A stretch of DNA of 64,000 bases from contig JBJXGB010000222.1 of NCBI GenBank assembly GCA_046152935.1, forward strand, positions 1,648-65,647. Direction: 5' to 3'. Position numbers and translations under genes: made by a program. Shown in pieces: positions 47,103-64,000 of the stretch (within the stretch, counting starts at the first letter, position 1; every line of letters begins with the position of its first letter). The notes beneath the pieces are model-generated. The model did no database searches. It was not told the origin of the DNA and was given only the letters and a program-made list of their open reading frames with translations. The stretch is from Cytophagales bacterium. GTDB lineage: Bacteria; Bacteroidota; Bacteroidia; Cytophagales; UBA9547.

Positions 47103-47707
47103 AAGCTGGATTTGATAAGATAATAATTACAATATTCGATAATTAAAGCTGCAAACACACAAGTTTGACATAAAAAATACCTGCAATTAAAAAGGGAGGA
47201 AAAAAACGAATATTATTTCGTCAAAAAAAACCAAATAATATATTGCCCCAAAGCAGCAACGAATTAAAAATAAAAATTTTATTGCTTATTATTGTAATTA
47301 TCAAAATTATATTCCAATTTTGACATATATATTAACACTATTCAGAACAATATTCTGAGACCAAACTAAATCTAAGCAAAAATGAAGCCTAGTTCTGCAC
47401 CTTATTTTCTTGTGGGCATTTCAAAAAATCTCAATTCCACCCTAACCCTCCCCCACGGTGAGAGTTAGCGTTGGGTTTGTATAATAATTTTTGAGGTTTT
47501 TAGAGATACCCTTCCGAAAGTTTACGATCATTAAGGTATTTTTGTCGGCTTACTTATCGAGTTTCAAGTTCTACAACGAGTTGCGGTGGCAACGCTTTCT
47601 TTTATGATCAAATCACATAAATGTAGCTAGACTAATTTACGTTACGTGTGATTTGACTTTTGTGGAATTATGTATACTTTTAGAACAACTACACTTAATT
47701 GATCTAC

Positions 47708-48892
47708 ATGACAGAGTTGCTACGATTAAAATTAGAAGTAAACGACAAATTTCAACAGCATTACAACAAGGCACCACAATTTGTGTCTGCGGCTCCAGGC
47801 CGAATCAACATTATTGGCGAACATACCGATTATAATTTTGGCCTGGCACTGCCCGCAGCCATCAATCGTTGGGTAATTATCAGCATGGCCTTTCGCGAAG
47901 ACAGCGAGATACATATTCATTCAGAAAATTATGGCTCTCAGATGGTTTTTATTCCAAACAATCCATTTACAGAAACGGAAAGCTGGACCAAATACATACA
48001 CGGAGCACTTGATATATTTGCCAAAAAAGACAAACTCAATCGAGGCTTCGATGCCCTTATTTGGGGCAATGTGCCACTTGGGGCAGGTGTTTCATCGTCT
48101 GCTGCTATCGAAGTAGCGATGATGAATTTGCTACGAACGAGCTTCCAAGCTACTTTTGACGACATTACCCTGGTAAAAAACTGCCAAAAGATCGAACATG
48201 AATATTTAAAAGTGAAATCAGGATTGTTGGATCAATACGCTTCACAATTCTCGAAAGAAGGCAAATTGATGGTGCTGGATTTTAAGTCGCTTACCCACGA
48301 ATATGTAGATGCCGACATGGGCGATTGGTGCTGGATATTGGCAAATACAAAAGTAAAAAGAGAGTTGGCCGGCAGTAAATATTCTGAAAGAGTAGTAGAA
48401 ACGCAGATGGGGCTAAATCAATTGAGTAATACCAATACCCAGATTGAAGGTTTTAGAGATGTCACCGTCAATGATCTTGGATCGATTACCGACCTTGTCA
48501 ATAGAAAAAGACTGAAACATTTGGTGTACGAAAACATTCGTGTATACAATACAGCCCAAGCATTCAAACTGAAAGACATGGAAAAAATAGGCGAATTGCT
48601 ACTCGAAAGCCATTATTCACTCAAAAACGACTATGAAGTAAGTTGCAAAGAATTAGACTTTTTAGTTGAAACGGGCAAAAAAGTGAAAGGCTGGGCCGGT
48701 GGACGAATGATGGGTGGTGGCTTTGGGGGCTGCACTATCAATTTGGTAAAAAAAGAGGCTATCGATTCCTTTTCTGAAACGATACTAAAGGAATACAACT
48801 TGAAATTTGGAATTGAAGCTGAATTGTACATTTTTGATACTGCAGCTGGTGCAAAGTGCGATGTTTTGCAGCCATACGCTTCAAGGGTTTGA
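47708..48892 (+). CDS. galK: galactokinase
   Basis: Galactokinase signature APGRINIIGEHTDYN and GHMP kinase motif PLGAGVSSSAA. ATG at 47708 is preferred over the TTG at 47699. Confidence 0.92.
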   Translation: MTELLRLKLEVNDKFQQHYNKAPQFVSAAPGRINIIGEHTDYNFGLALPAAINRWVIISMAFREDSEIHIHSENYGSQMVFIPNNPFTETESWTKYIHGALDIFAKKDKLNRGFDALIWGNVPLGAGVSSSAAIEVAMMNLLRTSFQATFDDITLVKNCQKIEHEYLKVKSGLLDQYASQFSKEGKLMVLDFKSLTHEYVDADMGDWCWILANTKVKRELAGSKYSERVVETQMGLNQLSNTNTQIEGFRDVTVNDLGSITDLVNRKRLKHLVYENIRVYNTAQAFKLKDMEKIGELLLESHYSLKNDYEVSCKELDFLVETGKKVKGWAGGRMMGGGFGGCTINLVKKEAIDSFSETILKEYNLKFGIEAELYIFDTAAGAKCDVLQPYASRV

Positions 48893-48923
48893 AACCCTTA
48901 AACCGTTAGAGATGGCTAGCAAT

Positions 48924-49913
48924 TTATTGTGTCTCCAATATCTTGAAAAGTTCGTCTAATTTTGGTGTGAGAATGATTTCTGTTCTTCGATTTTTTTGGC
49001 GAATTTCAGCCGACTTGCCATCGACAATTGGTAAAAATTCTGCCTTTCCAGCAGGCGTTATTTTTTGAGGTTTTACGCCTTCGGCAATTAATATTCTGGT
49101 AATATCGGTAGCGCGCAGCACACTCAAATCCCAATTATCTCTAAAAGCTGCATTGGTATTTTTGGCTACAGGCACATCATCGGTATGGCCTTCGATCATC
49201 ACATTTACTTCGGGCTGATTTTTCAAAACGCTTCCCAATTTACGCAGTGCTTCTTCGCCTTTTTTATCTACCGAAGTGCTACCAGAGCCGAAAAGAAGCT
49301 TTTCTGAGAGAGAAACATAAACCTTGCCATTTTTTACATTCACAGTAAGCCCATTGTCTTTAAATGAAAGCAGGGCATCGGTAACGCTATTTCTCAACGC
49401 CAAAACGGCACTGTCTTTTTGAGCCATTATTTGCTGCAAATCTTTTAATTTCGACTCTCGCTCTTTCAAATCTGTCAGCAATTTATCATTAGTCGACTTG
49501 GTGAGCATCAGCGATTTTTCCAAATCCAACAGTTGTTGCTCCTTTCTTGCCAAATTTGACGACATTTGGTTCGATTCGGCCGAATAATTGGCAAGCAAGT
49601 CTTTGTAATCTTTACGTAGTCTGTCGCCAGTGGCAGTTTGTTCTTCGAGCAGCTTTTGAATTCGAGAAATATTATCGGCTTTCAAAGTAGTATCCAGCAT
49701 CAATTCTTTTGCGATATTGTAGAGATTGACTATCTGTTCGGATTTAGTTTTGTTCAATGTTTTGTTGGCGTTCAAGCTATCTTGGCATTCAGAAAAATCG
49801 GCATCTAATCGCAGTTTTTTGGCAAGTAACTCATTGTGCTTTTTGCTTGAAACACAAGAACTGAAGACAATTACAAAGCCAAGAATGCCTGTTAATATTT
49901 TGATACTTTTCAT
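48924..49913 (-). CDS. OmpA/MotB-domain lipoprotein with long coiled-coil region
   Basis: Lipobox VFSSC, a ~180-aa coiled coil, and a C-terminal OmpA-like domain (IEGHTDDVP...NWDLSVLRATDITRIL...NRRTEIIL). Confidence 0.8.
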   Translation of the reverse strand: MKSIKILTGILGFVIVFSSCVSSKKHNELLAKKLRLDADFSECQDSLNANKTLNKTKSEQIVNLYNIAKELMLDTTLKADNISRIQKLLEEQTATGDRLRKDYKDLLANYSAESNQMSSNLARKEQQLLDLEKSLMLTKSTNDKLLTDLKERESKLKDLQQIMAQKDSAVLALRNSVTDALLSFKDNGLTVNVKNGKVYVSLSEKLLFGSGSTSVDKKGEEALRKLGSVLKNQPEVNVMIEGHTDDVPVAKNTNAAFRDNWDLSVLRATDITRILIAEGVKPQKITPAGKAEFLPIVDGKSAEIRQKNRRTEIILTPKLDELFKILETQ

Positions 49914-49927
49914 GTTGTTATTAAATG

Positions 49928-50644
49928 TTATCTATTAACGTTCAAAAGTTTGCCATTCGTATAAATTGGTAGCACATCATATTTGTCGCTTGTCATACAA
50001 AATTCTATATCTTTATGGATATTGAGTTTGGCAAGTCGTTTTGCATGGGTCGATTTTCTAGTCAAATCTATGATTTCATTTTTTGAAGATTGGTAAAGAA
50101 CAAGAGAAGACAACGCTGCATCTTGGTCAATATCAAAACTTTCGGTCAATTTTTCGATCAAAGCACCTGCAAACAAAGTATCTTCAAGATTAAAATGTCC
50201 TTTCCACCCAGCACATAGTATAATACAGCTCTTGCCAGTTTCTAGCAAATAATTTGCAACACTAGAAATATTCAAAAAACTGCCCACTACGATCGTATCT
50301 GCCTCGGTCGATTGTGTGATTGCCTGTGTACCATTGGTAGTAGTAATGGCAATCGTTTTGCCTTTCATGGCTTCATTCATGTAACTAAATGGCGAATTGT
50401 CAAGGTCAAAACCTTCCACTTTCATGCCATCTCGTTCGGCAGCGGCAAGCAAGCCAGAAATTTGTAAATCTCGGCATTCTTCAACTTCAGCAACGGGAAT
50501 AATACTTTCTACACCGTGTGCAAAAGCAGTTACCATACACGAAGTGGCTCTGAATATATCTGCCACTACTACAATTTTACCTTTCAATTCGTGCTGAAAC
50601 AAAAAATGGGGACTAAAACAAACTTCAATATTAGGTATTGGCAT
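49928..50644 (-). CDS. comB: 2-phosphosulfolactate phosphatase (ComB) family protein
   Basis: N-terminal VVVADIFRATSCMVTAF and DLDNSP blocks typical of the ComB family. 238 aa. Confidence 0.7.
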   Translation of the reverse strand: MPIPNIEVCFSPHFLFQHELKGKIVVVADIFRATSCMVTAFAHGVESIIPVAEVEECRDLQISGLLAAAERDGMKVEGFDLDNSPFSYMNEAMKGKTIAITTTNGTQAITQSTEADTIVVGSFLNISSVANYLLETGKSCIILCAGWKGHFNLEDTLFAGALIEKLTESFDIDQDAALSSLVLYQSSKNEIIDLTRKSTHAKRLAKLNIHKDIEFCMTSDKYDVLPIYTNGKLLNVNR

Positions 50645-50656
50645 TGTTGTATGTAA

Positions 50657-51742
50657 TTATATAAATGGGAACTTTGTCACTAATGCCTTTACCTTATTTT
50701 CTCTTATTCCAATAAAAATTTCTGTGCCAATTGTTGAAAATTCCTTTTTCACATATCCCAAACCTATTCCAACACCAAGAATGGGCGATTGTGTTCCAGA
50801 TGTAACTTCTCCAATTTTTTCTTCTTGCGCGTTGAATATTTCGTAATGACTTCGAGGAATTCCTCTTTCTACCATCTTAAAACCCACGAGTTTTTTAGCT
50901 ACACCAGTTTCCTTTTGTAATTTCAGCACCTCTGAATTAATGAAATTCTTTTCAAAACTTGTGATCCAACCTAAGCCAGCTTCAATTGGCGAGGTGGTGT
51001 CATCAATATCATTGCCGTACAGACAAAATCCCATTTCCAATCGCAGCGTATCTCGAGCTCCTAATCCGATTGGTTTGATGCCAAATTCTTTTCCTGCTTC
51101 CAAGATAGCATTCCACATTTCAACTGCGTTTTCATTTGGAATATACACTTCAAAGCCGCCAGCACCAGTGTAGCCAGTATTGGAGATCAAGATGTCCTTA
51201 ATGCCAGCCAATTCAATTTTATGGGCGAAGGTATAATACGACAAAGTCGCTAAATCGAAAGAAGTTAGCTTTTGCAATGCCAATGTTGCTTTGGGCCCTT
51301 GCACGGCAAATAAGCACAATCTATCAGATAAATTCTCTAATTCTGCCCCAAAACTGTTGTTTTTATTGATCCAATTCCAATCTTTCTCAATATTTGAAGC
51401 ATTTACCACCAAAAAATAAGCCTCGTTTGCGATACGATATACAAGAATATCATCTACAATTCCACCATTATCATTCGGCAAACACGAATATTGCACTTTT
51501 CCATCATGCAGTTTTGCTACATTATTGGATGTTACAAATTGTAATAAATCAAACGCTTTGGGCCCACTCACTAGAAATTCGCCCATGTGTGATACATCAA
51601 AAATACCTACTGCATGTCGCACATTGTTGTGCTCATCGATATCAGATGAATACCTTACCGGCATTTCAAAACCCGCAAACGGCACAATTTTGGCACCCAA
51701 TTGCGTATGTACTTGGTGTAGAGGAACTTGCTTTAAATTCAA
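50657..51742 (-). CDS. gcvT: glycine cleavage system aminomethyltransferase T
   Basis: [18 protein letters not shown]...[11 protein letters not shown]...GYTGAGGFE are GcvT blocks. TTG start at 51742. Confidence 0.93.
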
Positions 51743-52139: not shown

Positions 52140-55100
52140 ATGAATTCTATTTTAAAAAGAGTTCTTGAGATAGATGATAAAGAAGTAACCCCAGTATTGC
52201 TACTTCTGGCAAACTCATTTTTTATAGGGGTATTTATCGTGAGCTACGATGTCGCGGCAAACACGATTTTCCTCAACACGTTTGGTACCGAATATTTAAC
52301 ACGTATTCCCATATTTTCCGGAGCTTTGGGCATGATTTCCACCTCAATTTTTGCATATTTTCAACGAAGATTGCCATTTACACGCCTCACTCTATATTGC
52401 TTTAGCATTATTACCATCATAGTAGCCGCACTTTTTTTTGGGCTAGAATTTTACGACAGTCGTGCTTTGAAATTCGTTTCCTATTTACTTTTAGGTCCAA
52501 TCAATACCATTTTTATTCTGTGTTTTTATGGTACAGTTTCTCGTTCTTTCTCATTAAAAAGAGAGCGACACATGACAGGTACGGTAGATCAGGGCCAGAT
52601 GATCGCTACTGCTATCGCCTATTTCACGATTCCACTCGTTTCAGGCATTGTAGTTGATATTACAAAATTTTTCATTGCCAGCGTCATTAGTGGATCGTTA
52701 GCATTCGTGTTCATGTTTATTTTTCTGGTAAAATATGGCATAAATGCCCAACTAGAACGCAGTATCACCCATAATCAACGAGCGAGCAACACAGAATTGG
52801 CCGCCAGCCCTTACGTGCGGATGCTTGCTATGGTGTTTTTTGGCTCAGTACTGGCCACTATCTTTTTAGAGTATTCGTTCCTTACCGTAACAGTCGAAAA
52901 ATACAAAGACCAAGATTCTTTGGCCAGTTTTTTGGGTATTTATGGTGGATTGGTGACGGTATTTAGTGTGATCTTACAGACTTTCGTGGCCGATAGGGTC
53001 ATAAAATTGTATGGGATGAAAATATCTTTGATTTTAATTCCTAGCATATTGGGGCTATTTGCCATCTTGGCATCTTTAATTGGCACGTTTTTTGGCTACA
53101 CGGCCAACGATTCCAGTTTTATTCTCTTCTTTTTGTTTATGGCCATGAGCAAGTTATTTCTTCAATCGCTCAAGGAAGCATTTGAAGATCCTATTGTTAA
53201 AAACTTGTTTATCCCACTCGATTCAAAAAAACGCTACGATATTCAAACCAAAATAGAAGGCTTTTTCAAAGAATTTTCTGGTTTCATTGCAGGTACACTT
53301 CTCACGATTGTCAGTTATTTCAGTTTTGTAAATTTAATTTTTTACTCATATTTCCTTGCTGCTATATGTGCATTCTATTTTTATGTAGTAATAAGGCTGT
53401 TCGTTGAATATCGAAAAAACCTCACAGAAGCCTTGTTGAAGCAACAAGGCAAAGAAGCTGAAAGCGATAAGAAAGAATACGAAGTTACTGATGTACTAAT
53501 AAAAGAGTTGGAAACTGGCAATGTGAATACAATTATTTACACGCTCAAATTACTAGAAAAAATAGAGCCCATCATGGCTGAAGGTCGATTTACAAAATAC
53601 CTGAACGATCAAAACAAAGACCTGAGACAATATTCATTGCTTAGGCTTGAATCAAATAGAGCACTTAAAGCAATTGAAGAAATAACAAAACTAGAAGCCA
53701 GAGAAAACGACCCAGAAATAAAGTTGCTTGCCAGCAAAGCGCTAAAGGAATTAAACAACACCGACAGGGTAGAAATTGGTCATTTAATGACGTACACTTT
53801 GGTAAAATCAAAAAAGGTAGAAACTAGGATATATGCTGCGAGGCTCATTGCCAAAACTACAGAAGATGCTTATTTGCCCCAATTAATGCTTCTTTTGCGA
53901 GATTTGGACCCGAAAGTACGCTTTGCGGCCATGATATCTTCGGCACAAATGCAAAGAACAGAGACCTGGCCCATATTAATAGAATACCTATCTTCTTACA
54001 CATTTTGCAATGTTTCGGCTGCCGCTCTCATTACCTTTGGCGAATTGGTATTGCCTGCACTTGAAGCAGCATTTTATAAAACCAATCAATCGGCTACTAT
54101 TCAAGAAAAAATAGTGCAGATATATGGCAGAATTCAGGGCGATAAAGTGATCTCTCTGCTTTGGAATAAGATTGATTTTCCCGACAAAAAGATAGTAAAT
54201 AATGTTTTATTGTGTTTGAGTAGTTGCGGTTTTAGGCCAGAAGGCGATCGTATTGTGCGTATAAAACAGCAAATCGAGTCTGAAATTGGTAATTCGGCTT
54301 GGAACATTGCAGCCCTTACCGAAATACCGCAAACTGAAGAAACCATATTGCTAAAACAAGCATTGGAAGAGGAGATAGCCTTTAATTTCGAGAACATTTA
54401 TATGCTATTGGCTTTGATATACGATTCTCAAGCCATCAAATTAGTGAAAGACAATATTGAATCTGGCACCGTAGAGGGGTTGGTATATGCAATAGAGCTA
54501 ATCGATGTGTTTATGGCAGAGGAATTGAAACCTATATTTCTGCCATTGATAGAAGACATCTCGCAATCGGAGCGCACAGAAAGATTGCAAGGGAGCTTTC
54601 CAAGGCAAAAACTTGACAGCATTGAAGTGCTAAAACAAATCATCAACCGAGATTATAATAAAGTAAATAAATGGACCAAAGCCTGTGCCATGTATTGCTA
54701 CGCAAATATGCAAGAATCTGAAATGTGCGATGATCTTACGGCCAATTTATTCAACCCCGACCCCTTATTAAGAGAAATATCTGCTTGGTCGATCGTTAAG
54801 AAAGATTATTACAGCTACAAACAAAATTCGAATCGATTGGTAGAAAATATAAGAAAAGAGCTTGATTCACAATTTTTAAATGCCACCCATGATGAAAACG
54901 AGCCTAGAAAACAATTGAGCAGAATTGAAAAAATATTTTTCCTAAAAGAGCTTCCGGCTTTTAAAAATGTTCCGGGTGTTATTTTGGTAGAGTTTGTAGA
55001 GCTAATTGAAGAGGTGATAATAAAAAAAGATGCGGTAATTCTGGATTTTGGCGCTACCGGACAGTCGCCACTTTATATTATTGTAAAGGGAAACGCAGAG

Positions 55101-55364
55101 GTAAAAAGCGAATCTGGCGAAATCATTACAATCATTGGCGAAAAGGAAATGATAGGAGAAATGCTAATACTCGATACCGACCACAACCATCACGAAATTA
55201 TTGCCTCAGAAGATTGCATTCTATTTAAAATAGACAAAGACCGATTTCTGGAGCAAATCACTGATAATTTTGAAATTGCAAAAGAATTAATCCAAGTAAT
55301 TTCTTCAAAATTCAAAGCCATAGAAGAAATAAAGATAGAATCGAAAGAAGTGTTTGAAAGCTAA
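52140..55364 (+). CDS. polytopic membrane protein: 12-TM transporter-like domain + HEAT/ARM-like repeats + C-terminal cyclic-nucleotide-binding-like domain
   Basis: 12 hydrophobic helices in aa 1-425. HEAT-like repeats in aa ~450-900 (LRDLDPKVRFAAMISSAQ, ENDPEIKLLASKALKEL, NPDPLLREISAWSIVKK). CNB-like beta-roll in aa 926-1055 (FLKELPAFKNVPG...IIGEKEMIGEMLIL...). Confidence 0.7.
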   Translation: MNSILKRVLEIDDKEVTPVLLLLANSFFIGVFIVSYDVAANTIFLNTFGTEYLTRIPIFSGALGMISTSIFAYFQRRLPFTRLTLYCFSIITIIVAALFFGLEFYDSRALKFVSYLLLGPINTIFILCFYGTVSRSFSLKRERHMTGTVDQGQMIATAIAYFTIPLVSGIVVDITKFFIASVISGSLAFVFMFIFLVKYGINAQLERSITHNQRASNTELAASPYVRMLAMVFFGSVLATIFLEYSFLTVTVEKYKDQDSLASFLGIYGGLVTVFSVILQTFVADRVIKLYGMKISLILIPSILGLFAILASLIGTFFGYTANDSSFILFFLFMAMSKLFLQSLKEAFEDPIVKNLFIPLDSKKRYDIQTKIEGFFKEFSGFIAGTLLTIVSYFSFVNLIFYSYFLAAICAFYFYVVIRLFVEYRKNLTEALLKQQGKEAESDKKEYEVTDVLIKELETGNVNTIIYTLKLLEKIEPIMAEGRFTKYLNDQNKDLRQYSLLRLESNRALKAIEEITKLEARENDPEIKLLASKALKELNNTDRVEIGHLMTYTLVKSKKVETRIYAARLIAKTTEDAYLPQLMLLLRDLDPKVRFAAMISSAQMQRTETWPILIEYLSSYTFCNVSAAALITFGELVLPALEAAFYKTNQSATIQEKIVQIYGRIQGDKVISLLWNKIDFPDKKIVNNVLLCLSSCGFRPEGDRIVRIKQQIESEIGNSAWNIAALTEIPQTEETILLKQALEEEIAFNFENIYMLLALIYDSQAIKLVKDNIESGTVEGLVYAIELIDVFMAEELKPIFLPLIEDISQSERTERLQGSFPRQKLDSIEVLKQIINRDYNKVNKWTKACAMYCYANMQESEMCDDLTANLFNPDPLLREISAWSIVKKDYYSYKQNSNRLVENIRKELDSQFLNATHDENEPRKQLSRIEKIFFLKELPAFKNVPGVILVEFVELIEEVIIKKDAVILDFGATGQSPLYIIVKGNAEVKSESGEIITIIGEKEMIGEMLILDTDHNHHEIIASEDCILFKIDKDRFLEQITDNFEIAKELIQVISSKFKAIEEIKIESKEVFES

Positions 55365-55378
55365 TAATAAAATCGGAG

Positions 55379-56860
55379 ATGAATTTTACATTTGATATAT
55401 ACATAAGCTATGCTTTAAAAGATAATCACCAAACTGACTCTCAAGCAGGATGGGTGAGTAATTTTCAGCGTTTTTTAGAAACTCTCATCTTTCAAATTAT
55501 GGGCGAAAAGCCTAGTTTTCTAAATTATGAAAGCCAAGAAAAACCTGCAAAATCAGAATTAGTAAAAGTGGCGGTGTTTGTATGCATTGTTTCGCCAGAA
55601 TATGTAAAAAGCGAGTCTTCGATCGAAGAGATAGACGACTTTTTCAATATAGCCAACACCAACGGAAATCTATTCGTCAATGGCAAAGAAAGGGTACTTA
55701 AGGTAGTGAAATTTCCAGTTCCAATGCTAGAGCAGCCGACTAAAGTAGCGAATCTATTGGAATACGATTTGTATCAAACCGATAGTATCACTGGACAGCC
55801 TAATGAATTTGTAGATTTTTTCAATATTGAAGCTCAAAGAAAATATTGGCTAAAAATAGTAGACTTAGCTTACGATATTTCTGCGATCTTAAAATCAAAT
55901 CGGAAGCGTAGCGTAGCTCAACAAGACTATTCGATTTACAACGAAAAAAATGTGTATTTAGCAGAATCCGGCTTTGATTTACAACTACATAGAGATAGCA
56001 TCAAACGCGAACTTACCAGACATGGTTTCCGTGTTTTGCCCGACCACGCCTTGCCCACAAATCTGTTAGAACTTGAATTAGCCATCAAAAAAGACATCGA
56101 ACGCTCGAGGCTTTCCATACATTTGGTTGGCGATAGCTATGGTGAATATGCGCCCACATCTCCCAAATCAATACTAGAAATTCAGAATAAACTGGCTGGT
56201 GATCACAGCATTATTTCATCTGGCTCTGCAAACAGTAGATTTAGCCGTCTGATCTGGATTTCGCCCGATGCAAAACTCGACAATGACAAGCAAAAAATGT
56301 TTATCGATAATTTGAGGCGAGATCTTGAAGCCAATGAAGGAGCTGAAATACTTCAGTCGCCCATTGAAGACTTCAAAATGGTGGTTTTAGGAGAATTACT
56401 AGATTTGAACATTGAAAAATTAAAAAGGGAAACCATTTTGAGTGGTCAAATTAACCAAGACAAAAAAAACATTTATCTTATATTTGACAATGTAGATCGG
56501 ATTGAAGCTCAGAAAATAGCCGATTTTTTAAATTACAAGGGCTATCAAACAATATTGCCTTCTTTTGAAGGCGAACTTTTAGAATTGAGAGAAATTCATC
56601 TCAATAATTTGAAACAATGCGATGCAGCCCTCATCTACATTGATAAAGTAAATGATTTGTGGGTACAAATGAAATTTTTAGATTTGCTAAAAGCACCTGG
56701 ACTAGGCCGTACAAAACAAGAGCTATTCAAAGCCCTTGTTTTAGGCAAAGATGTCAAAAATAGAGCTGGAGATTTGAATAAATTCGATGCCCCAGTATTT
56801 GAAATAAACGACAATATTGAAAATTCATTAGCCGGATTTATCAAAGAATTTGCACTATGA
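55379..56860 (+). CDS. protein with an N-terminal TIR-like domain followed by two further TIR/flavodoxin-like modules
   Basis: FDIYISYALKD...W...VAVFVCIVSPEYVKSESSIEEI fits the bacterial TIR pattern (D[IV]FISY..D; S..Y..S.....E). Internal repeats KNVYLAESGFD...GFRVLPD and KNIYLIFDNVD...GYQTILP. Confidence 0.65.
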   Translation: MNFTFDIYISYALKDNHQTDSQAGWVSNFQRFLETLIFQIMGEKPSFLNYESQEKPAKSELVKVAVFVCIVSPEYVKSESSIEEIDDFFNIANTNGNLFVNGKERVLKVVKFPVPMLEQPTKVANLLEYDLYQTDSITGQPNEFVDFFNIEAQRKYWLKIVDLAYDISAILKSNRKRSVAQQDYSIYNEKNVYLAESGFDLQLHRDSIKRELTRHGFRVLPDHALPTNLLELELAIKKDIERSRLSIHLVGDSYGEYAPTSPKSILEIQNKLAGDHSIISSGSANSRFSRLIWISPDAKLDNDKQKMFIDNLRRDLEANEGAEILQSPIEDFKMVVLGELLDLNIEKLKRETILSGQINQDKKNIYLIFDNVDRIEAQKIADFLNYKGYQTILPSFEGELLELREIHLNNLKQCDAALIYIDKVNDLWVQMKFLDLLKAPGLGRTKQELFKALVLGKDVKNRAGDLNKFDAPVFEINDNIENSLAGFIKEFAL

Positions 56861-59800
56861 CACCTGAAATAAATACCAACCAAGACGTAGCCAAGCAAAA
56901 GCTGGTAAAAAATCACAGCAACCCATTCCCAGGCCTGCGACCATTTAGCATGGACGAAAGCCATTTATTCTTTGGGCGAGAAGGGCAAAGCGATGAAGTT
57001 TTGAGGAAAATCTCTGAAAATAAATTCGTAGCTGTCATTGGCTCGTCTGGCAGCGGAAAGTCGTCTTTTATATATTGTGGCGTAATACCAATATTATATG
57101 GTGGTTTTCTTACAAAAATTGGCACTAATTGGGACGTAATCGTTACCAGACCAGGCGGTGGCCCAATCGACAACTTAGCCGAATCTATAGCCAAAAAAGA
57201 TAAAAATTACAGTTCACTCACTAGAGAGGAAAAAACCTTACAAAAAACCATCACTTCTACGCTTCTAAGAAGCAGCTCCTTGGGCATAACGGAAGCGGTG
57301 AGTAAATACACCGAGACTGAGAACACCAATATATTGTTAATAGTCGATCAATTTGAAGAATTATTTCGTTTCAAAAAGAATGAGGAAAACGAAGGAAGCA
57401 GTGAATCATTGGCGTATGTAAATCTTTTGGTAGATGCGGTACAAAATGCAGGAAACCACATATATGTAGCAGCCACAATGCGATCCGATTTTATAGGCGA
57501 ATGTGCTCAATTTCCACAACTTACAAGACTTATCAATCAAAGTAATTACCTTATTCCTCAAATGACGAGGGAACAAAAACGCTCAGCAATATTTGGGCCA
57601 GTTTCTGTTGGTGGAGCTAAAATTACACCTCGTCTTTTGCAACAAATATTAGGCGATCTGGGCGACAATCCCGATCAATTGCCGATCATGGCGCACTCAT
57701 TGATGAGGACTTGGGATTACTGGCAAACAAATAAAGAAGACAATGAGCCAATGGATTTACCTCATTATGAGGCCATTGGCACTATGTCGGGTGCACTTTC
57801 TCAACATGCCAATGAAGCATACGATGAGCTAAATGCCCGTGAGAAAGAAATCTGTGCCATTCTTTTTAAATGCTTAACAGAAAAAACTGGTGATTCTGAT
57901 GGCATTCGCAGACCAACTCGGGTAAATGTGATCTCGAAAATTGCCAATTGCACAGATGATGAAATAATAAATATCGTTGAGGTTTTTCGTAAGCCAGGTC
58001 GGTCGCTCATCATGCCACCTTTTGGTGTAAATCTTTCACCAAATTCGATAGTCGATATTTCGCACGAATCTTTAATGCGAATATGGGTACGACTCAAAAA
58101 CTGGGTTGATGAAGAAGGGCAAGCCGTAGAAATGTATTTACGACTTTCAGATGCTGCTTCCAAATACCAAACTGGAAAATCTGGAATGTGGAGACCACCA
58201 GATTTGCAATTGGCTTTAAATTGGCAAGAAAAGAATATTCCGACATTGGAATGGGCTGTGAGATACAACCCTGCTTATGAAAGAACGATGGTTTTTCTTG
58301 AAACAAGTAAGAAAGCCTTTGAAACAGAGCAGAAAGTAAAAGAGGAACAGCAACGTAAAAGATTGGCTCAAGCCACTCGCACGGCCCTTTTTCTAGGGGT
58401 GCTTACCGTATTGGCGTTGGTAGCATTTGTGTATTCGTTTATATTGAAAATTGAGGCAGACAAACAAACAGGCCTTGCAAAAGAAAGCCAATTACAAGCA
58501 ATAAAACAATCTAAACTGGCCACAAAAAATGCCAAATTAGCTGAAGAGCAACGGATAATTGCCTCTGCAAAAGAAAAAGAAGCAGTTTTGCAATCAGAAG
58601 AAGCCAAGCACCAAAAAGAATTGGCTTTGGTAGCTGCCGATGAGGCGAATTTGCAAAAATCTTTTGCTCAAAAAAGCTTAGTAAGAGCCAACGTGCAAAC
58701 CAAAATTGCTGAAGAACAGAAAGCATTGGCTCTATTAAATGAGCAGAAAGCCAAAGATTCGCAAATAAAGGCAGAAAGAGCCCAAACTGACGCCTCAAGA
58801 CAACGTTTTTTATCTATTGCACAAGCCATGTCCGTGAAATCTTTGCAGATTTTAGATACCACGACCAAAGTGCTGGTGGCTCAACAAGCGTTCAAATACA
58901 ACCGAGATTTTAAAGGAAATCCACACAGCCACGATGTATACGATGGCTTGTATTACGCTACAAAATTTCTTTTTCACGACAATCATAATAGCCTAAAAGG
59001 CCATTCGGATGCTGTGAGAGGTGTGGTATTCGCTCCAAATGGAGATTTGTACACCGCAGGAAGCGATGGAAAAGTACTAAAATGGAGCATGGAAAATGGG
59101 ATATATAAAAGTGTATTATTCCATAAAAATTCCTTTATCAACAGAAATATCATAATCAGCAGCAACGGCAAATGGCTGGCTTTGGTTGGCGAAGCACCAT
59201 TTATACAACTGTTTGATTTATCAAACCCAAACAGCAAGCCCAAAAAGCTGTATGGGCATAAAGGACAAATCTGGACAGCTACTTTCATGCCTGACAACCA
59301 AAATTTGGTTTCAATTGGTTCTGATAGTTCTATTCTGATGCGAAATTTGGATACTGACAAATATTTTTTAGTAGCTAAAACGAGCACAAAAGTCAAAACA
59401 CTAGCTACCAGTTCTGTTGGCAATTATATAGCAGGTGGCGATGAAATCGGCAATATTTTTGTTTGGGATGTTGGCAAAACGAAAGCCCCAATGGTAATTA
59501 CATCAAAAAACCTTAAGAAAATACAATCTCTATCTATTAGTCTGGATGGTAAATATTTGGCAGCTGGCGATGAACATGGTTTGGTGAAAATATGGGACGC
59601 ATTCGATAACTTCAAATTGACAGCCAACCTTACAGGCCACCGATCTCGCATTAATGATTTAAAATTTGACCCAAAAAGTGAAGTTCTAGCAACAGCCAGC
59701 TTCGATGGAAGCGTAAGAATGTGGGATTTAGATCACTTAAACGAGCAGCCAATTACACTTCGAGATCACAATTCTTGGGTTTGGTCCGTAGCTTTTACAG

Positions 59801-60006
59801 GCGATGGTCTAAACATAGTAACAGGCTGTGTAGATAATTTAATCAGAATTTATCCGACCAATGCAGAATCTATGGCCGATAAAATATGCTCGAAATTAAA
59901 ACGCAACATGACACCTGCCGAATGGACTGCCTATGTAGCCAAGGATATTAGCTTTGAAGAAACATGCCCAGGATTGCCTCAAGGTAGAAATCAAGAATTG
60001 GAATAG
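56857..60006 (+). CDS. STAND-type P-loop NTPase - single TM helix - coiled coil - WD40 repeat protein
   Basis: NPFPGLRPFSMDESHLFFGRE + Walker A GSSGSGKSS (57040-57063) + Walker B ILLIVDQFEELF. TM helix TALFLGVLTVLALVAFVYSFIL (58381-58446) preceded by RKR..R. ~125-aa A/K/E/Q coiled coil. At least 6 WD40 repeats (GHSDAVRGVVF...GSDGKVLKW; GHRSRINDLKF...SFDGSVRMWD). The ATG overlaps the upstream stop (ATGA). Confidence 0.8.
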   Translation: MTPEINTNQDVAKQKLVKNHSNPFPGLRPFSMDESHLFFGREGQSDEVLRKISENKFVAVIGSSGSGKSSFIYCGVIPILYGGFLTKIGTNWDVIVTRPGGGPIDNLAESIAKKDKNYSSLTREEKTLQKTITSTLLRSSSLGITEAVSKYTETENTNILLIVDQFEELFRFKKNEENEGSSESLAYVNLLVDAVQNAGNHIYVAATMRSDFIGECAQFPQLTRLINQSNYLIPQMTREQKRSAIFGPVSVGGAKITPRLLQQILGDLGDNPDQLPIMAHSLMRTWDYWQTNKEDNEPMDLPHYEAIGTMSGALSQHANEAYDELNAREKEICAILFKCLTEKTGDSDGIRRPTRVNVISKIANCTDDEIINIVEVFRKPGRSLIMPPFGVNLSPNSIVDISHESLMRIWVRLKNWVDEEGQAVEMYLRLSDAASKYQTGKSGMWRPPDLQLALNWQEKNIPTLEWAVRYNPAYERTMVFLETSKKAFETEQKVKEEQQRKRLAQATRTALFLGVLTVLALVAFVYSFILKIEADKQTGLAKESQLQAIKQSKLATKNAKLAEEQRIIASAKEKEAVLQSEEAKHQKELALVAADEANLQKSFAQKSLVRANVQTKIAEEQKALALLNEQKAKDSQIKAERAQTDASRQRFLSIAQAMSVKSLQILDTTTKVLVAQQAFKYNRDFKGNPHSHDVYDGLYYATKFLFHDNHNSLKGHSDAVRGVVFAPNGDLYTAGSDGKVLKWSMENGIYKSVLFHKNSFINRNIIISSNGKWLALVGEAPFIQLFDLSNPNSKPKKLYGHKGQIWTATFMPDNQNLVSIGSDSSILMRNLDTDKYFLVAKTSTKVKTLATSSVGNYIAGGDEIGNIFVWDVGKTKAPMVITSKNLKKIQSLSISLDGKYLAAGDEHGLVKIWDAFDNFKLTANLTGHRSRINDLKFDPKSEVLATASFDGSVRMWDLDHLNEQPITLRDHNSWVWSVAFTGDGLNIVTGCVDNLIRIYPTNAESMADKICSKLKRNMTPAEWTAYVAKDISFEETCPGLPQGRNQELE

Positions 60007-60042: not shown

Positions 60043-61110
60043 ATGTCAATTCGTATTTTCAAAAAAGCAATTCAATACATGTTGCCATTCGTAGTGTTTG
60101 CTTCTTCCGCACAAATCCCACTTAAAAGTTCGTGTAGTCAAAAGCTAAAGGAGATGCAAAAAAACTATGAGCAAGGCATTTTATCCACCATAGCAAACGA
60201 TTTGGAAGATTGTATGTTTGACGGATTTACAAAAACCGAAAAATTGCAAGGCTATAGGCTCATTATTCTTTCTTATTTGTTTCTTGATGAGAACAGAAAT
60301 GCCGAGAAAAAAATGAACGAGTTGTTGGTATATGAGCCTGATTACCAACCAAATAAAGCTTTAGATCCGGTTGAATATGTAAAACTTTACGAATCTTTCA
60401 ATGTATTGCCCAATATTTCGTTTGGCGTAAGTATAGGTGCGAATCAAAGTGCTGTAAATGCTGGATCGACCTACGGAGTTGGAAATACGGAGGTCATTCC
60501 AGTAAAATTTACTGGTGGAATTGGCTTAAATTTTGGCGTTTGTGCAGATTTACTTCTCTATAAAAATCTATTCTTGACTGTTGAAGGATATTATACAACA
60601 AAAAACTTTAGTTCTAAGCAACCCATTCTTAACTCCTCAGAACTCAATACCACCGAAAGTCAAACATCTATTAGCACTCCGCTCACCTTAAAATACTCAA
60701 TTGGCACCCGAAAAATAAGATTTTTTGTGCGATCAGGCTTTTCATTAGATTACTTACTAAGCTCTCAAAACGAATTGATAAGAAAAAACATTATTACAGA
60801 CCAAAACGACTTTGCGGGAGCCAGTATAAGTATGGATAGTCAAAGAAATAAAATTAACTTTTCGGCAGTATTTGGGGGTGGCATTACCTACAAATTAGGG
60901 TACGGTTTTGCCTTCATCGATGCTAGGTATTTGTACGGCCTCACCAATTATTCTAATTCAAAAGTTAGATATAATTTTTTCGACACCCAAGTCACTAATT
61001 ATGGCTATGTCGACCCAGATTTTGGATTAAATAATGTTCAGTTGAGTATAGGATATATGTATTCTCTCTATAAAGTAAAGAAGAAAAAAAGTAATTTTAT
61101 CATTGATTAA
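60043..61110 (+). CDS. outer-membrane beta-barrel protein with N-terminal helical (TPR-like) domain
   Basis: Signal peptide (MLPFVVFASSAQ). ~95-aa helical region. Then alternating beta-strand pattern typical of small OM barrels (FGVSIGANQS, GGGITYKLGYGFAFIDARYLYGL, LSIGYMYSL). Confidence 0.6.
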   Translation: MSIRIFKKAIQYMLPFVVFASSAQIPLKSSCSQKLKEMQKNYEQGILSTIANDLEDCMFDGFTKTEKLQGYRLIILSYLFLDENRNAEKKMNELLVYEPDYQPNKALDPVEYVKLYESFNVLPNISFGVSIGANQSAVNAGSTYGVGNTEVIPVKFTGGIGLNFGVCADLLLYKNLFLTVEGYYTTKNFSSKQPILNSSELNTTESQTSISTPLTLKYSIGTRKIRFFVRSGFSLDYLLSSQNELIRKNIITDQNDFAGASISMDSQRNKINFSAVFGGGITYKLGYGFAFIDARYLYGLTNYSNSKVRYNFFDTQVTNYGYVDPDFGLNNVQLSIGYMYSLYKVKKKKSNFIID

Positions 61111-61111
61111 T

Positions 61112-62386
61112 ATGCGATTATCTTTATTCAACAAATCATCGATTTGCCTTTTAATATTTTTTTCAATCGTCAATTTTGTGGGCTGCAATAGAATTGATGT
61201 ATCTCCCAATCTATCGAAAGCGTTCATAAAATTTTATGGGGGAAATGGCTCAGAAATTTCTTCTAAAATGCTGCTGTTGAACGATGGTTCTTTCTTGATG
61301 CTGGGCACAAGCTCCTCTTTCAACACAAATGACACAACAGATATTTATTTGGTGAAATCCAATGACAAAGGCAATAAAATTTGGGAAAAAAACTATGGCA
61401 ATGGTCTTTTTGAAATCGCAGAGGTAATACGCAAATCGACCGACAATACGGTGGTGATGCTTGGCACTTCTGGCGATGTAGCCACAGGAAATGCAAGCAT
61501 TTATCTTGCTAAAATCAACCCAAACGATGGTGCATTGGTTTGGCAAAAAACATTAAAAAACAACAACAAAAGTACATACGGTTATGATCTTTCTGTTGAT
61601 GCCAGTGGTTCAATATTTGTGGTGGGTGCTACGGACACGCTTACGAATATTGGCCTGTTGAAAAATGTATATATCACCAAATTAAATGCAGACGGTTCGG
61701 AAAATAACACCATTCCTACCCTAGGGCTAGATAGCAGAAATAATCTTGCTAGAAACATTATTGACATCAATGGCAATGAGGTTTCTTGCTTGGTAAATAC
61801 CACTATTTCTGTTGATGTAAACGGCTCTCCACAGACACAAGCTTCCCCTATTTTTGTAAATATTAAGCTTGATGTTGGTCGAGCTACATTGCAAGTAAAC
61901 AAAAGCTCGCCACAAATCGGTGAATTGAGCATACAAAATGCTAACCAGATGAAAAAAACAGCTGATGGGGGTTACATCGTAGTGGGCTCCTGTATAAAAA
62001 ACGGAGTCAAAAATATGTATTTACTCAAATTGGATAAGGATTTTAACAAAACTGACGGCAAAGGTTGGTTTCAGTTTTATAGTGATGAGGGCGATAGTGA
62101 AGGCTTAAATGTGATCCAATGCACTGATGGGGGCTATGCGGTTTGTGGCACTACCTTTTCGAATACTTTTAATAATAATATTGCACTGCTTCGTACCAAT
62201 GCCAATGGCGATGCATTGTTTATGAAAAATTATGGCGGAACTGGCAATGATTTGGGGACAGATATTACCCAAACAAACGATGGTGGATTTGCCATTTTGA
62301 GCACCATAGAATTATTAAATTCACCACAAAACAGGCCCGTGATGTCGCTCCTAAAGACCAATGCCAATGGTAATTTAGAAAACTAA
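61112..62386 (+). CDS. lipoprotein built from ~6-7 beta-propeller-like repeats
   Basis: Lipobox NFVGC. Repeats of the form [DG]G[GS][FY].[IV].G.T......D.[YL]L.K.N..G...W (e.g. DGSFLMLGTSSS...DIYLVKSNDKGNKIW; DGGYAVCGTTFS...IALLRTNANGDALF). ATG 1 nt after the upstream stop. Alternative TTG at 61103. Confidence 0.6.
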   Translation: MRLSLFNKSSICLLIFFSIVNFVGCNRIDVSPNLSKAFIKFYGGNGSEISSKMLLLNDGSFLMLGTSSSFNTNDTTDIYLVKSNDKGNKIWEKNYGNGLFEIAEVIRKSTDNTVVMLGTSGDVATGNASIYLAKINPNDGALVWQKTLKNNNKSTYGYDLSVDASGSIFVVGATDTLTNIGLLKNVYITKLNADGSENNTIPTLGLDSRNNLARNIIDINGNEVSCLVNTTISVDVNGSPQTQASPIFVNIKLDVGRATLQVNKSSPQIGELSIQNANQMKKTADGGYIVVGSCIKNGVKNMYLLKLDKDFNKTDGKGWFQFYSDEGDSEGLNVIQCTDGGYAVCGTTFSNTFNNNIALLRTNANGDALFMKNYGGTGNDLGTDITQTNDGGFAILSTIELLNSPQNRPVMSLLKTNANGNLEN

Positions 62387-62424: not shown

Positions 62425-64000
62425 ATGAAAATAAAATTAACTTTATTATTTCAGGTATTTGCCCTCTTTATTTTTTTTTGTTGCCAAGGTCAAATCAATG
62501 TTTCACCTGCTACTGGAGGGATAAATATTTGTACTGGTTCGGTCGCAACTCTTTCGAATATTACAATTACAGCATCTAATATAAATGATTTTAATAATGG
62601 TTCGAACACCAACGATGATGGCTACAAATTATTTTTGCCAACGGGTTTCATTTTTGCTGAAGTGCCAGCTGTCACTACCATATCTGGCTCTACTAATATT
62701 GAAATAGATTATGGATATGTAGGTACAGTTACATCATCTACATTTCGATTTAGATATTCTACTTCGGGTTCAGTTGCAGTAAATGACGGTTTTGTCATTT
62801 CAAATATAAAAGTATTGTCTACCTCTGCTGGATTTGGTTTTATTACAAGAATTAATGATGGTCTGTTAAACAACGATGCGACTGTAACAGGAAGTTATGG
62901 CATAAATTATGGTTTGCTTTCAAGTATCAACACACCGAATTTAACGCCAATAGTAGCTAATGCATCAGTCTGCGGGGCAGATTTGATTAGTTTTGTACCC
63001 AACACAGTGTCAGGAGTTAGCTACAATTTTTACACGATGAGCAATAATTTGGTGGCCATGAATGCTACCTCTTACTCAAAAACCTATGCGAATGGTGTAG
63101 TTGAGAGCTTTCAAATTGCGCCAGTTTCTGGAATCTGCCAAGCAAATAATAGTCTTTGGGCTACCGTTACTGGCACTTCCTTCAATGTACCTTCTGCACC
63201 GTCTGCAGCAAACACCACTAGCCAATTAAGCGTATGCGAAGGTTCGGGGTCAAATCCTACACTGTCTGTCACGGGCGGAACATTATTCAACTGGTACGCA
63301 GATCAGAATCTCACTATTTTACTTGGGTCATCTTCTGGTGGCTACATTCCTTCACCTGCAATCATTACGTCAGCTGCGGGTGCAAATTTCGACTATTATG
63401 TCACTAGCAAGCAAGGAGATTGCGAAAGTCCTTCGAGAAAAATATCAGTAACGGTAACAGATGTGCCTAGCTTTTTGATTACAAATTTGTCATCGAGCTA
63501 TTGTGCTAGTTCTCAATCTATTACGATAAATGCATTCCCAACTATTTCAGGTGCAAATGGCATATTTACTGCTACAAAACTTTCGGGACCAGGAAATATT
63601 TCAAATTTTTTAACTTTTACTGGCGGTAATTATAGCGTATCACCTGCCAATGTCACAGGATTAAGTTCAACTACTGGCACAAATATAAATTTGATATATA
63701 CTGTAACTGTAAATGGATGTGTTTCAACTGCTTCAAATACTACCAATATATTTGCTTTGCCATCTGTAGATTTTGTTTTGCCAAGTAGCCCTACTCTTGG
63801 TTTAATTAGGGATACTGACCCTCCTTTCTCATTGGTAGGAAGCCCTGCAGATGGTAGTTTTGCAGGAACTGGTGTTGCAGGCAATGATTTTGACGTACGA
63901 TTATTAACAACTGGTACTTACACAGTTACGTACACTGCCAGCTTAAATGGATGTACAAACAGTATCAACAAAAACATTACTGTAGTAACCAATACAGGCA
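62425..64000 (+). CDS. large secreted cell-surface protein with Cys-containing Ig-like repeats, 5' part (runs off the right edge)
   Basis: Own translation: MKIKLTLLFQVFALFIFFCCQGQINVSPATGG..., open to position 64000. Recurring units with C.G/NGC and '...WY' (LSVCEGSGSNPTLSVTGGTLFNWYAD...GDCESPSRKISVTV). These resemble Ig-like repeats of Cytophaga-type gliding/T9SS adhesins. Confidence 0.6.
   Translation, partial: MKIKLTLLFQVFALFIFFCCQGQINVSPATGGINICTGSVATLSNITITASNINDFNNGSNTNDDGYKLFLPTGFIFAEVPAVTTISGSTNIEIDYGYVGTVTSSTFRFRYSTSGSVAVNDGFVISNIKVLSTSAGFGFITRINDGLLNNDATVTGSYGINYGLLSSINTPNLTPIVANASVCGADLISFVPNTVSGVSYNFYTMSNNLVAMNATSYSKTYANGVVESFQIAPVSGICQANNSLWATVTGTSFNVPSAPSAANTTSQLSVCEGSGSNPTLSVTGGTLFNWYADQNLTILLGSSSGGYIPSPAIITSAAGANFDYYVTSKQGDCESPSRKISVTVTDVPSFLITNLSSSYCASSQSITINAFPTISGANGIFTATKLSGPGNISNFLTFTGGNYSVSPANVTGLSSTTGTNINLIYTVTVNGCVSTASNTTNIFALPSVDFVLPSSPTLGLIRDTDPPFSLVGSPADGSFAGTGVAGNDFDVRLLTTGTYTVTYTASLNGCTNSINKNITVVTNTG

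Follow-up and report, generated by a model that had tools for sequence, protein, structure and literature searches.

The 64,000-nucleotide stretch of DNA analyzed here (the window, from contig JBJXGB010000222.1 of a Cytophagales bacterium) carries a gene for a 493-residue protein made of three tandem TIR-like modules, followed by a gene for an nSTAND1 NTPase. Comparison of sequence profiles indicates that module 1 is a TIR_2 relative with Glu84 at the canonical catalytic position, that module 2 is a DUF4062 domain in which the catalytic glutamate has been replaced and the rest of the motif kept, and that module 3, also of the TIR superfamily, is a copy of module 2 that has diverged and has a lysine at the Glu position as placed by a weak alignment. 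We tentatively propose, with confidence a little short of even, that a split NLR-like receptor spans the membrane and has the triple-TIR protein as its cytoplasmic output arm, in which one catalytic TIR would be combined with two pseudo-enzyme regulators. The gene and its parts are the following.

55379–56860, forward strand: triple TIR-like protein, 493 residues (open reading frame, translation, three domains in the AlphaFold2 model)
55379–55906, forward strand: module 1, residues 1–176, TIR_2-type TIR domain (Pfam TIR_2, hhalign)
55628–55630, forward strand: codon of Glu84, at the canonical catalytic Glu position (hhalign, codon check)
55940–56416, forward strand: module 2, residues 188–346, DUF4062 domain, putative pseudo-enzyme (Pfam DUF4062, hmmsearch, hhalign)
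56183–56185, forward strand: codon of Gln269, which replaces the catalytic Glu (alignment to Eva01)
56450–56857, forward strand: module 3, residues 358–493, TIR/DUF4062-like, no Pfam model (AlphaFold2, Foldseek, hhalign)

The reading frame check and translation confirmed that 55379–56860 encodes 493 residues. An earlier sequence-only reading of the window had described three tandem modules, and its quoted strings were found at their places: FDIYISYALKD at residues 5–15, VSPEYVKSESSIEEI at residues 71–85, and the module starts KNVYLAESG from residue 190 and KNIYLIFDN from residue 363. This layout was borne out by an AlphaFold2 model obtained from a 39-sequence alignment (mean pLDDT, the predicted local distance difference test, of 80), which displays three independent beta-alpha-beta domains at about residues 1–176, 188–346, and 358–493, separated by disordered linkers (residues 177–187 and 347–357, pLDDT below 50). 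The hydropathy scan revealed no transmembrane segment and no signal peptide was predicted, so that the protein is predicted to be cytoplasmic. Using the whole model as a Foldseek query, the best match was the TIR of SNC1 (5h3c, E = 8.5e-5; the output does not specify the module aligned), followed by SARM1, AbTir, MyD88, TIR-STING, and SPARTA TIRs.

DUF4062 has been described as a TIR-like NADase in three 2026 preprints (10.64898/2026.05.01.722283, 10.64898/2026.06.25.731849, 10.64898/2026.09.04.749371), in which KpSwz of Swarozyc requires E97 and human TEP1 requires E1008, while the human DUF4062 proteins NWD1, NWD2, and NPHP3 show no NADase activity. According to the Evangelion preprint, Eva01 requires F11 and E87, within an ‘acidic-SYT / E-Y’ motif, and mutation of E87 abolishes defence. 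In the window protein, Pfam DUF4062 (PF13271) matches residues 192–267 (E = 2.3e-5, 24.9 bits, above the 24.7-bit cutoff), and it is matched by 37 of the 39 family members. Comparison of the module 2 profile with Eva01, whose sequence was taken from plasmid pMW2, gave E = 1.3e-8 by hmmsearch and 91.7% with E = 7.6e-7 by hhalign, the alignment being ungapped over the motif and pairing the following residues.

Eva01 F11: module 2 Y193 (N-terminal aromatic)
Eva01 D18: module 2 D200
Eva01 R23: module 2 R205
Eva01 G69: module 2 G251
Eva01 S71-Y72-G73: module 2 S253-Y254-G255 (GxSYG motif)
Eva01 S82: module 2 S264 (Ser before helix C)
Eva01 E85: module 2 E267
Eva01 E87 (catalytic): module 2 Q269
Eva01 Y88: module 2 N270
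Eva01 A91: module 2 A273

Residue conservation, here and below, was counted over 232 full-length family members. At position 269, where DUF4062 NADases have their catalytic glutamate, a glutamine is present in 219 members (94%) and a glutamate in 11; at the neighboring position 270, an asparagine replaces the tyrosine in 201 members (87%). The N-terminal aromatic residue is retained throughout, position 193 being Tyr in 204 members and Phe in 28. More generally, Y193, A195, E196, D200, R205, G251, Y254, G255, S264, D/E267, N270, and A273 are 84–97% conserved. Trp293 is also invariant in module 2; the Eva01 alignment stops near Eva01 residue 97, before W162 of the Q/W/E motif. Since these motif residues are conserved and module 2 shows the highest conservation among the three modules (median identity of 51% among Cytophagales-type members), the substitution points to a retained, putatively working binding site from which cleavage has been removed, rather than to decay. 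When PDB sequences were searched by HMMER, both module 2 and the family profile gave chance matches alone (RmlA and Rv3488, E > 0.3).

The kinship of module 3 to module 2 was established with the 232-sequence profiles (hhalign 93.8%, E = 1.7e-7, 65 columns); it was not significant by BLASTP (E = 0.26, 14/44 identities) or by hhalign with 39 sequences (E = 0.08). The two modules had been said to begin with a near-identical element: their relatedness stands, whereas the near-identity does not, given the BLASTP result. A Pfam scan of module 3 gave no match in the window protein and none beyond noise in 25 orthologs. Modelled alone with AlphaFold2, module 3 shows the same beta-alpha topology with a pLDDT of 90 and a predicted template modelling score (pTM) of 0.86. 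Alignment with a canonical TIR by hhalign is weak (E = 0.0037) and in register, placing the TIR tryptophan on W428 and the catalytic glutamate on K432. W428 is invariant and position 432 is a lysine in 225 members; the most invariant stretch of the triple-TIR protein is W428..M431-K432..D435..K438-A-P-G441-x-G443-R444-x-K446. A reading of the KAPG.GR.K loop as the LOG/SLOG ‘PGGxGT’ motif was rejected, as both the spacing and the place in the fold differ.

Foldseek searches of the PDB with module 3 retrieved, on the TIR side, C. elegans TIR-1, TIR-STING, the RRS1 TIR (TM-score 0.67), SARM1, RUN1, AbTir, and SPARTA TIRs, and also nucleoside 2-deoxyribosyltransferases (NDTs) from T. brucei and Leishmania, DNPH1/Rcl, and BcmB. 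Both classes matched with E-values of 3e-4 to 1e-2 and TM-scores up to 0.67, flavodoxin-like and Ras folds being ranked lower. The similar E-values of the two classes would be compatible with module 3, and perhaps module 2, being an NDT- or DNPH1-like nucleotide-processing enzyme with a metabolic role. We consider this highly improbable. First, the position of the catalytic Glu nucleophile of NDT and DNPH1 is non-acidic in both modules (K432 and Q269), and module 3 as an NDT enzyme was rejected for lack of the catalytic acid, its likeness to NDTs being one of fold alone. Secondly, module 3 is homologous to DUF4062. Thirdly, a single weak Nuc_deoxyrib_tr match was found in 25 sequences (E = 0.12, at noise level), and the gene context is that of a signalling operon. 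The sequence-only reading had placed modules 2 and 3 among divergent TIR-like or NDT-like Rossmannoid domains, which agrees with a DUF4062 assignment for module 2 and with a module 3 that is homologous to it and matches both TIR and NDT folds.

Catalytic TIR NADases are characterized by a glutamate of helix C located four residues past a conserved tryptophan (S..S.WC..E motif). Over the whole window protein, Pfam TIR_2 gives a marginal match at residues 8–93 (E = 1e-5, 26.5 bits for a cutoff of 28 bits), and 33 of the 39 family members match it at E ≤ 1e-3. About 10 of these 26.5 bits, relative to module 1 scored alone, come from weak similarity elsewhere in the protein, presumably from modules 2 and 3. 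The 232-sequence profile of module 1 aligned with the canonical N-terminal TIR_2 domain of a relative, P0233, over 135 columns (hhalign 94.9%, E = 4.5e-8), pairing SPESIRSGWVKEEY of P0233 with SPEYVKSESSIEEI of the window protein. In this alignment, E77 of P0233, four residues after its tryptophan, falls on Glu84 and W73 falls on Ser80; position 80 is a tryptophan in 27 family members. Of the two candidates put forward earlier for the catalytic residue, Glu83 and Glu84, it is Glu84 that aligns with the canonical glutamate, with the restriction that its conservation is limited to the sub-clade of the window protein, where it is strictly kept down to about 47% identity. The suggestion that probably only one module is catalytic fits the residues observed, namely Glu84 on the TIR glutamate, Gln269, and Lys432, the last from a weak alignment.

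The family is large, with relatives in 573 species genomes. A word-indexed search returned 993 homologs of about 480 residues, those with names belonging to Cytophagales and related Bacteroidota (Fulvivirga, Ohtaekwangia, Chryseolinea, and Cyclobacteriaceae); the window protein itself has an identical counterpart, a hypothetical protein in a metagenome-assembled genome from Cytophagales. An exhaustive profile search yielded 4829 cluster representatives at 50% identity, of which 1304 had E < 1e-30, and more than 150 of these 1304 clusters span all three modules. A scan of species-representative genomes found relatives in 573 stretches. Longer members from other lineages display the canonical motif in module 1 (SEWCTKEV, SQWCRKEL, and SEWCQKEL, i.e. 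S.WC.KE[LV]), and the same distant multidomain members carry the glutamine in module 2 and W...K in module 3. The combination of one catalytic TIR and two pseudo-enzymes is therefore probably ancestral, as judged from these motifs.

The partner gene downstream encodes an NTPase with a transmembrane helix and WD40 repeats, as listed below.

56857–60006, forward strand: nSTAND1 NTPase-transmembrane-WD40 partner (Pfam nSTAND1, E = 2.2e-90, and WD40)
partner residues 23–440: nSTAND1 NTPase domain (Pfam)
58387–58443, forward strand: single strongly hydrophobic transmembrane helix, partner residues 511–529 (hydropathy scan)

The stop codon of the triple-TIR gene and the start codon of the partner overlap (ATGA), so that the two genes are read as translationally coupled. 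The partner sequence contains GSSGSGKS and LLIVDQFEE, which we read as putative Walker A and Walker B motifs. The transmembrane helix lies between the NTPase and WD40 parts in each of 66 orthologs, and three partners from other lineages also have it; its N-terminal flank is rich in Lys and Arg. A linker of low conservation may form a coiled coil. The NTPase would be cytoplasmic and the WD40 part periplasmic. Median identity reaches 65% for the NTPase domain against 33% for the WD40 region. The nSTAND1 gene adjoins the triple-TIR gene in 82 of 83 related loci, and the two are fused in another relative, P0265; the pair thus has the composition of an nSTAND1 system, an NTPase with an N-terminal effector or adaptor in cis or adjacent.

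NLRs carry their signalling domain N-terminal to the NTPase, and the fused triple module holds the same place. TIR NADases are activated by oligomerization, through composite TIR-TIR active sites. In the receptor that we propose, the periplasmic WD40 propeller would receive an envelope signal, and the cytoplasmic NTPase would oligomerize and thereby cluster the triple-TIR protein. This clustering would create TIR-TIR contacts that render module 1 active for the cleavage of NAD(P)+, leading to an ADP-ribose-type signal or to NAD+ depletion. Modules 2 and 3 would be non-cleaving, acting as built-in partner TIRs and/or as nucleotide-binding regulators that set the threshold.

Several observations weigh against this proposal. 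Module 1 alone scores 16.3 bits on TIR_2, and Ser80 stands at the position of the TIR-motif tryptophan. Position 84 is a glutamate in just 86 of the 232 family members, and the Fulvivirga/Ohtaekwangia/Cyclobacteriaceae clade, the largest of Cytophagales, shares this operon and carries T, N, or H there; the conserved function of the operon therefore cannot depend on catalysis by module 1. The pTM of the full model (0.46) leaves the relative placement of the domains without confidence. Three elements of the proposal are inferred: that the triple-TIR protein touches the NTPase, that the WD40 part is in the periplasm, and that modules 2 and 3 bind ligands. Lastly, other members carry additional effector domains (kinase, CHAT, or a canonical TIR) joined to the triple module, which suggests that the cassette may be an adaptor rather than an effector.

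MyD88/MAL and the RRS1 TIR are TIRs that serve for assembly only. By analogy, the triple-TIR protein could be a purely non-catalytic adaptor whose three modules assemble through TIR-TIR or TIR-partner contacts and connect nSTAND1, once oligomerized, with another output, for example the MFS-HEAT-cNMP protein encoded upstream, Glu84 being a leftover. The absence of the canonical glutamate from most Cytophagales orthologs with the same operon, the lack of a catalytic glutamate in modules 2 and 3, the presence of the non-catalytic RRS1 TIR among the best structural matches of module 3 (TM-score 0.67), the inactivity of NWD1, NWD2, and NPHP3 as NADases, and the fusion of kinase, CHAT, or canonical TIR domains to the cassette, as if it recruited effectors, all speak for such a role. 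It is opposed by the strict retention of Glu84 in the sub-clade of the window protein to about 47% identity, by the complete S.WC.KE motif of distant members, and by a conservation of the module 2 motif that is too high for a mere spacer. We regard this adaptor as rather unlikely, though it is the main rival of the output-arm proposal.

The other genes of the operon are listed below.

52140–55364, forward strand: polytopic MFS-like protein with HEAT repeats and a C-terminal cyclic-nucleotide-binding domain, 1074 residues (Pfam cNMP_binding, E = 1.2e-12, and HEAT_2)
60043–61110, forward strand: 355-residue protein, putative outer-membrane beta-barrel (orthologs match OMP_b-brl_2, PF13568)
61103–62386, forward strand: 427-residue lipoprotein-like protein, with an N-terminal hydrophobic segment ending in Cys (hydropathy; weak Pfam matches to PQQ_2/SBBP, beta-propeller)
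62425–64000, forward strand: start of a large secreted protein with the predicted signal peptide MKIKLTLLFQVFALFIFFCCQG, running off the window (frame translation)

The 1074-residue protein has about 12 hydrophobic segments, and an ortholog gives a weak MFS_1 match. Its cNMP match is weaker or undetected in the Fulvivirga and Ohtaekwangia orthologs, and its cNMP domain gives weak PADLOC matches to effector models annotated ‘TIR’ (PDLC00731 and PDLC00732). For the 427-residue protein, the listed TTG start places the first 8 nucleotides (61103–61110) inside the preceding gene, and an alternative ATG lies three codons downstream (MRLSLF). At the position equivalent to 62425, orthologous loci encode a giant fn3/PKD/Por_Secre_tail protein, of the type IX secretion kind.

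A tblastn survey of 83 related loci showed that the gene order is fixed, on one strand: MFS-HEAT(-cNMP), triple-TIR, nSTAND1-WD40, outer-membrane barrel, 427-residue protein. In this order, the genes were found in 79, 83, 82, 68, and 33 of the 83 loci, most absences corresponding to contig ends, and the five-gene order is held across about 80 species of Cytophagales. The closest operon (77% identical) is located on CAZMFZ010000015.1, labelled ‘uncultured Bifidobacteriaceae bacterium’; the other carriers are Cytophagales/Bacteroidota, and this is probably a mis-binned or mislabelled metagenome-assembled contig. Upstream, at 47699–51742, the genes look like housekeeping genes from their translations: galactokinase-like (with a TTG start), OmpA-family, ComB-like 2-phosphosulfolactate phosphatase, and GcvT-like aminomethyltransferase. 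In the 83 related loci, none of them was found at less than 10 kb from the operon, which indicates that the flanks vary by lineage while the operon is conserved. A scan for sigma-70 promoters and terminators gave counts at the level of shuffled sequences and was uninformative on the operon boundaries.

The operon context bears on a further possibility, that the cassette is an input rather than an output: the pseudo-sites of modules 2 and 3 would be occupied by NAD+, ADP-ribose, or a related nucleotide and would inform the NTPase of the metabolic or signalling state, with the output at the periplasm or surface. A Glu-to-Gln replacement with the DUF4062 motif otherwise kept is the pattern of a non-cleaving binder, module 3 has its invariant Trp and its Gly/Arg/Lys-rich loop KAPG.GR.K, and the cyclic-nucleotide-binding domain encoded upstream shows nucleotide sensing within the operon. 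The fused cassette, however, sits at the N-terminal place usual for STAND effectors and adaptors, and WD40 repeats are usually the sensor part; we therefore hold an input role to be quite improbable.

Outside this operon, the surroundings of the family change: the gene order is conserved in Cytophagales, a distribution that is not sporadic, and contexts are variable in other lineages. In P0265, the cassette is fused N-terminal to nSTAND1 and lies beside a NACHT-FGE-sulfatase gene, toxin-antitoxin genes, and transposases. Other members carry fused Ser/Thr kinases, a CHAT protease, or an extra canonical TIR_2, followed by an nSTAND1-transmembrane-WD40 gene. Direct fusions occur at the following places.

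L085, 8001–10919; L086, 2143–7886; L089, 2958–8632: cassette fused directly to nSTAND1, to a CHAT protease, or to Ser/Thr kinases

The neighborhood of L085 includes NACHT-FGE-sulfatase, PIN toxin-antitoxin genes, transposases, and Planctomycete-type PSD/PSCyt genes. Another relative, P0142 (667 residues, locus L088, 3–13105), has an extra DUF4062-like stretch and the same downstream genes; upstream of it, an SprB-repeat/PKD/Por_Secre_tail protein takes the place of MFS-HEAT.

Searches of defence and mobile-element collections returned little. In PADLOC-DB v2, the triple-TIR protein matches no family and its neighbors give weak domain-level matches alone; tblastn against 72,556 plasmid and 50,697 phage records found no relative of the triple-TIR protein; and NCBIfam holds nothing specific for it. 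Membership in FxsC_Nterm was rejected (22 bits for a cutoff of 130 bits). A defence role is thus unsupported by the Cytophagales context, with its conserved operon, blank PADLOC result, and absence of plasmid or phage relatives.

These results bear on the hypothesis of a classical abortive-infection anti-phage system, in which the STAND protein would sense a phage component and the TIR/DUF4062 protein would deplete NAD+, killing the cell. Thoeris-like systems, Swarozyc, and Evangelion use TIR and DUF4062 NADases to this end, and nSTAND1 was defined within predicted conflict systems (PMC8195603). Relatives from other lineages are found near toxin-antitoxin, transposase, or NACHT-FGE-sulfatase genes, and some have CHAT fusions. 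In the Cytophagales operon, by contrast, the triple-TIR protein draws a blank in PADLOC and has no relative among the plasmid and phage records, the gene order is held in about 80 species with envelope partners, the NTPase domain is 65% identical, unlike fast-evolving immune genes, the sensor is predicted to be periplasmic, away from cytoplasmic phage proteins, and the catalytic glutamate is lost in most orthologs. We find this explanation unlikely; it fits the relatives of other lineages better than the Cytophagales operon.

A bolder reading, which we put forward as speculation that is rather improbable in its full form, is that immune-type modules (TIR, DUF4062, STAND, and WD40) have been co-opted for housekeeping, envelope-spanning signalling in gliding Cytophagales. 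The periplasmic WD40 part would be coupled to the outer-membrane barrel, the lipoprotein, and the giant type IX-exported surface protein; surface or contact events would be passed by the transmembrane STAND protein to the cassette, with its one active TIR and two dead sites binding NAD-derived nucleotides, and the cassette would then control the MFS-HEAT-cNMP transporter. If true, the system would be a transmembrane NLR of bacteria that serves a purpose other than immunity, and it would provide the first natural case of a DUF4062 domain acting as a nucleotide sensor.

TIR domains are known as immune executioners that cleave NAD+, and DUF4062 domains have been added to them since 2026. That immune-type domains are conserved here as part of a core operon, beside envelope and type IX secretion components, suggests a role for them outside phage defence. 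With its Glu-to-Gln and Glu-to-Lys copies beside one TIR, the family is a natural test case for the role of TIR-like pseudo-enzymes, which might be nucleotide sensors or built-in partners in composite sites. The layout of a STAND protein with a transmembrane helix before the WD40 repeats appears to be undescribed for NLR-like proteins in the literature searched. In the same literature, no description was found of a three-module cassette with fixed Gln and Lys, of its pairing with a transmembrane STAND protein, or of the conserved envelope operon, in agreement with the sequence-only reading, which knew of no defence TIR protein with a triple layout.

Among known systems, the DUF4062 NADases Swarozyc, Evangelion, and TEP1 are comparable through module 2, which shares with them the Pfam DUF4062 match and an ungapped motif alignment with Eva01. 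They differ in that the E87-Y88 pair of Eva01 corresponds to Gln269-Asn270 in the triple-TIR family. Moreover, these NADases carry a variable auxiliary region, whereas module 2 is flanked by two TIR-like domains, in a protein that is partnered with an nSTAND1 NTPase and has no plasmid or phage association.

The 2026 DUF4062 preprints give the layout of TEP1, NWD1, and NWD2 as DUF4062-NACHT-WD40. Together with bacterial TEP1-like proteins, they follow the same logic as the system of the window, with a TIR-like domain N-terminal to a STAND NTPase and C-terminal WD40 repeats. TEP1, NWD1, and NWD2 are nevertheless single proteins with a NACHT domain and one TIR-like module, whereas the window has two coupled genes (fused in P0265), an nSTAND1 domain, three modules, and a transmembrane helix between the NTPase and WD40 parts. 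The inactive NWD1, NWD2, and NPHP3 provide a precedent for a non-catalytic DUF4062.

nSTAND1 was defined in predicted conflict systems by Kaur, Iyer, Burroughs & Aravind (eLife 2021, PMC8195603); according to that paper, nSTAND1 NTPases can bear TIR, caspase-like, and S/T kinase domains at their N-terminus, the same kinds of domains that are fused to the triple cassette here. As presented there, those systems have FGS (FGE-sulfatase) sensors, often with diversity-generating retroelements, and are sporadic, whereas here the WD40 part lies behind a transmembrane helix and the genes form a Cytophagales five-gene operon followed by a secreted-protein gene. The passages of it that were consulted make no mention of the triple cassette or of the transmembrane WD40 form.

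With TIR-NLRs (the plant RPP1 and ROQ1 resistosomes and bacterial TIR-STAND proteins) and with SARM1, module 1 shares the TIR fold, the glutamate, and the coupling to an oligomerizing NTPase, and the structural matches of the whole model include SNC1, RPP1, SARM1, and AbTir. In contrast with them, the triple-TIR protein lacks the motif tryptophan, its glutamate is not conserved across orthologs, it has two extra pseudo-TIR modules, and its sensor is predicted to be extracytoplasmic. Regarding the scaffolding TIRs (MyD88/MAL and RRS1), modules 2 and 3 likewise lack the catalytic glutamate, and in the structural search with module 3 the RRS1 TIR ranks near the top. Unlike in these scaffolds, the motif residues around the replaced position are highly conserved in the triple-TIR family, which suggests that a binding site has been kept and that the domains are more than surfaces for interaction.

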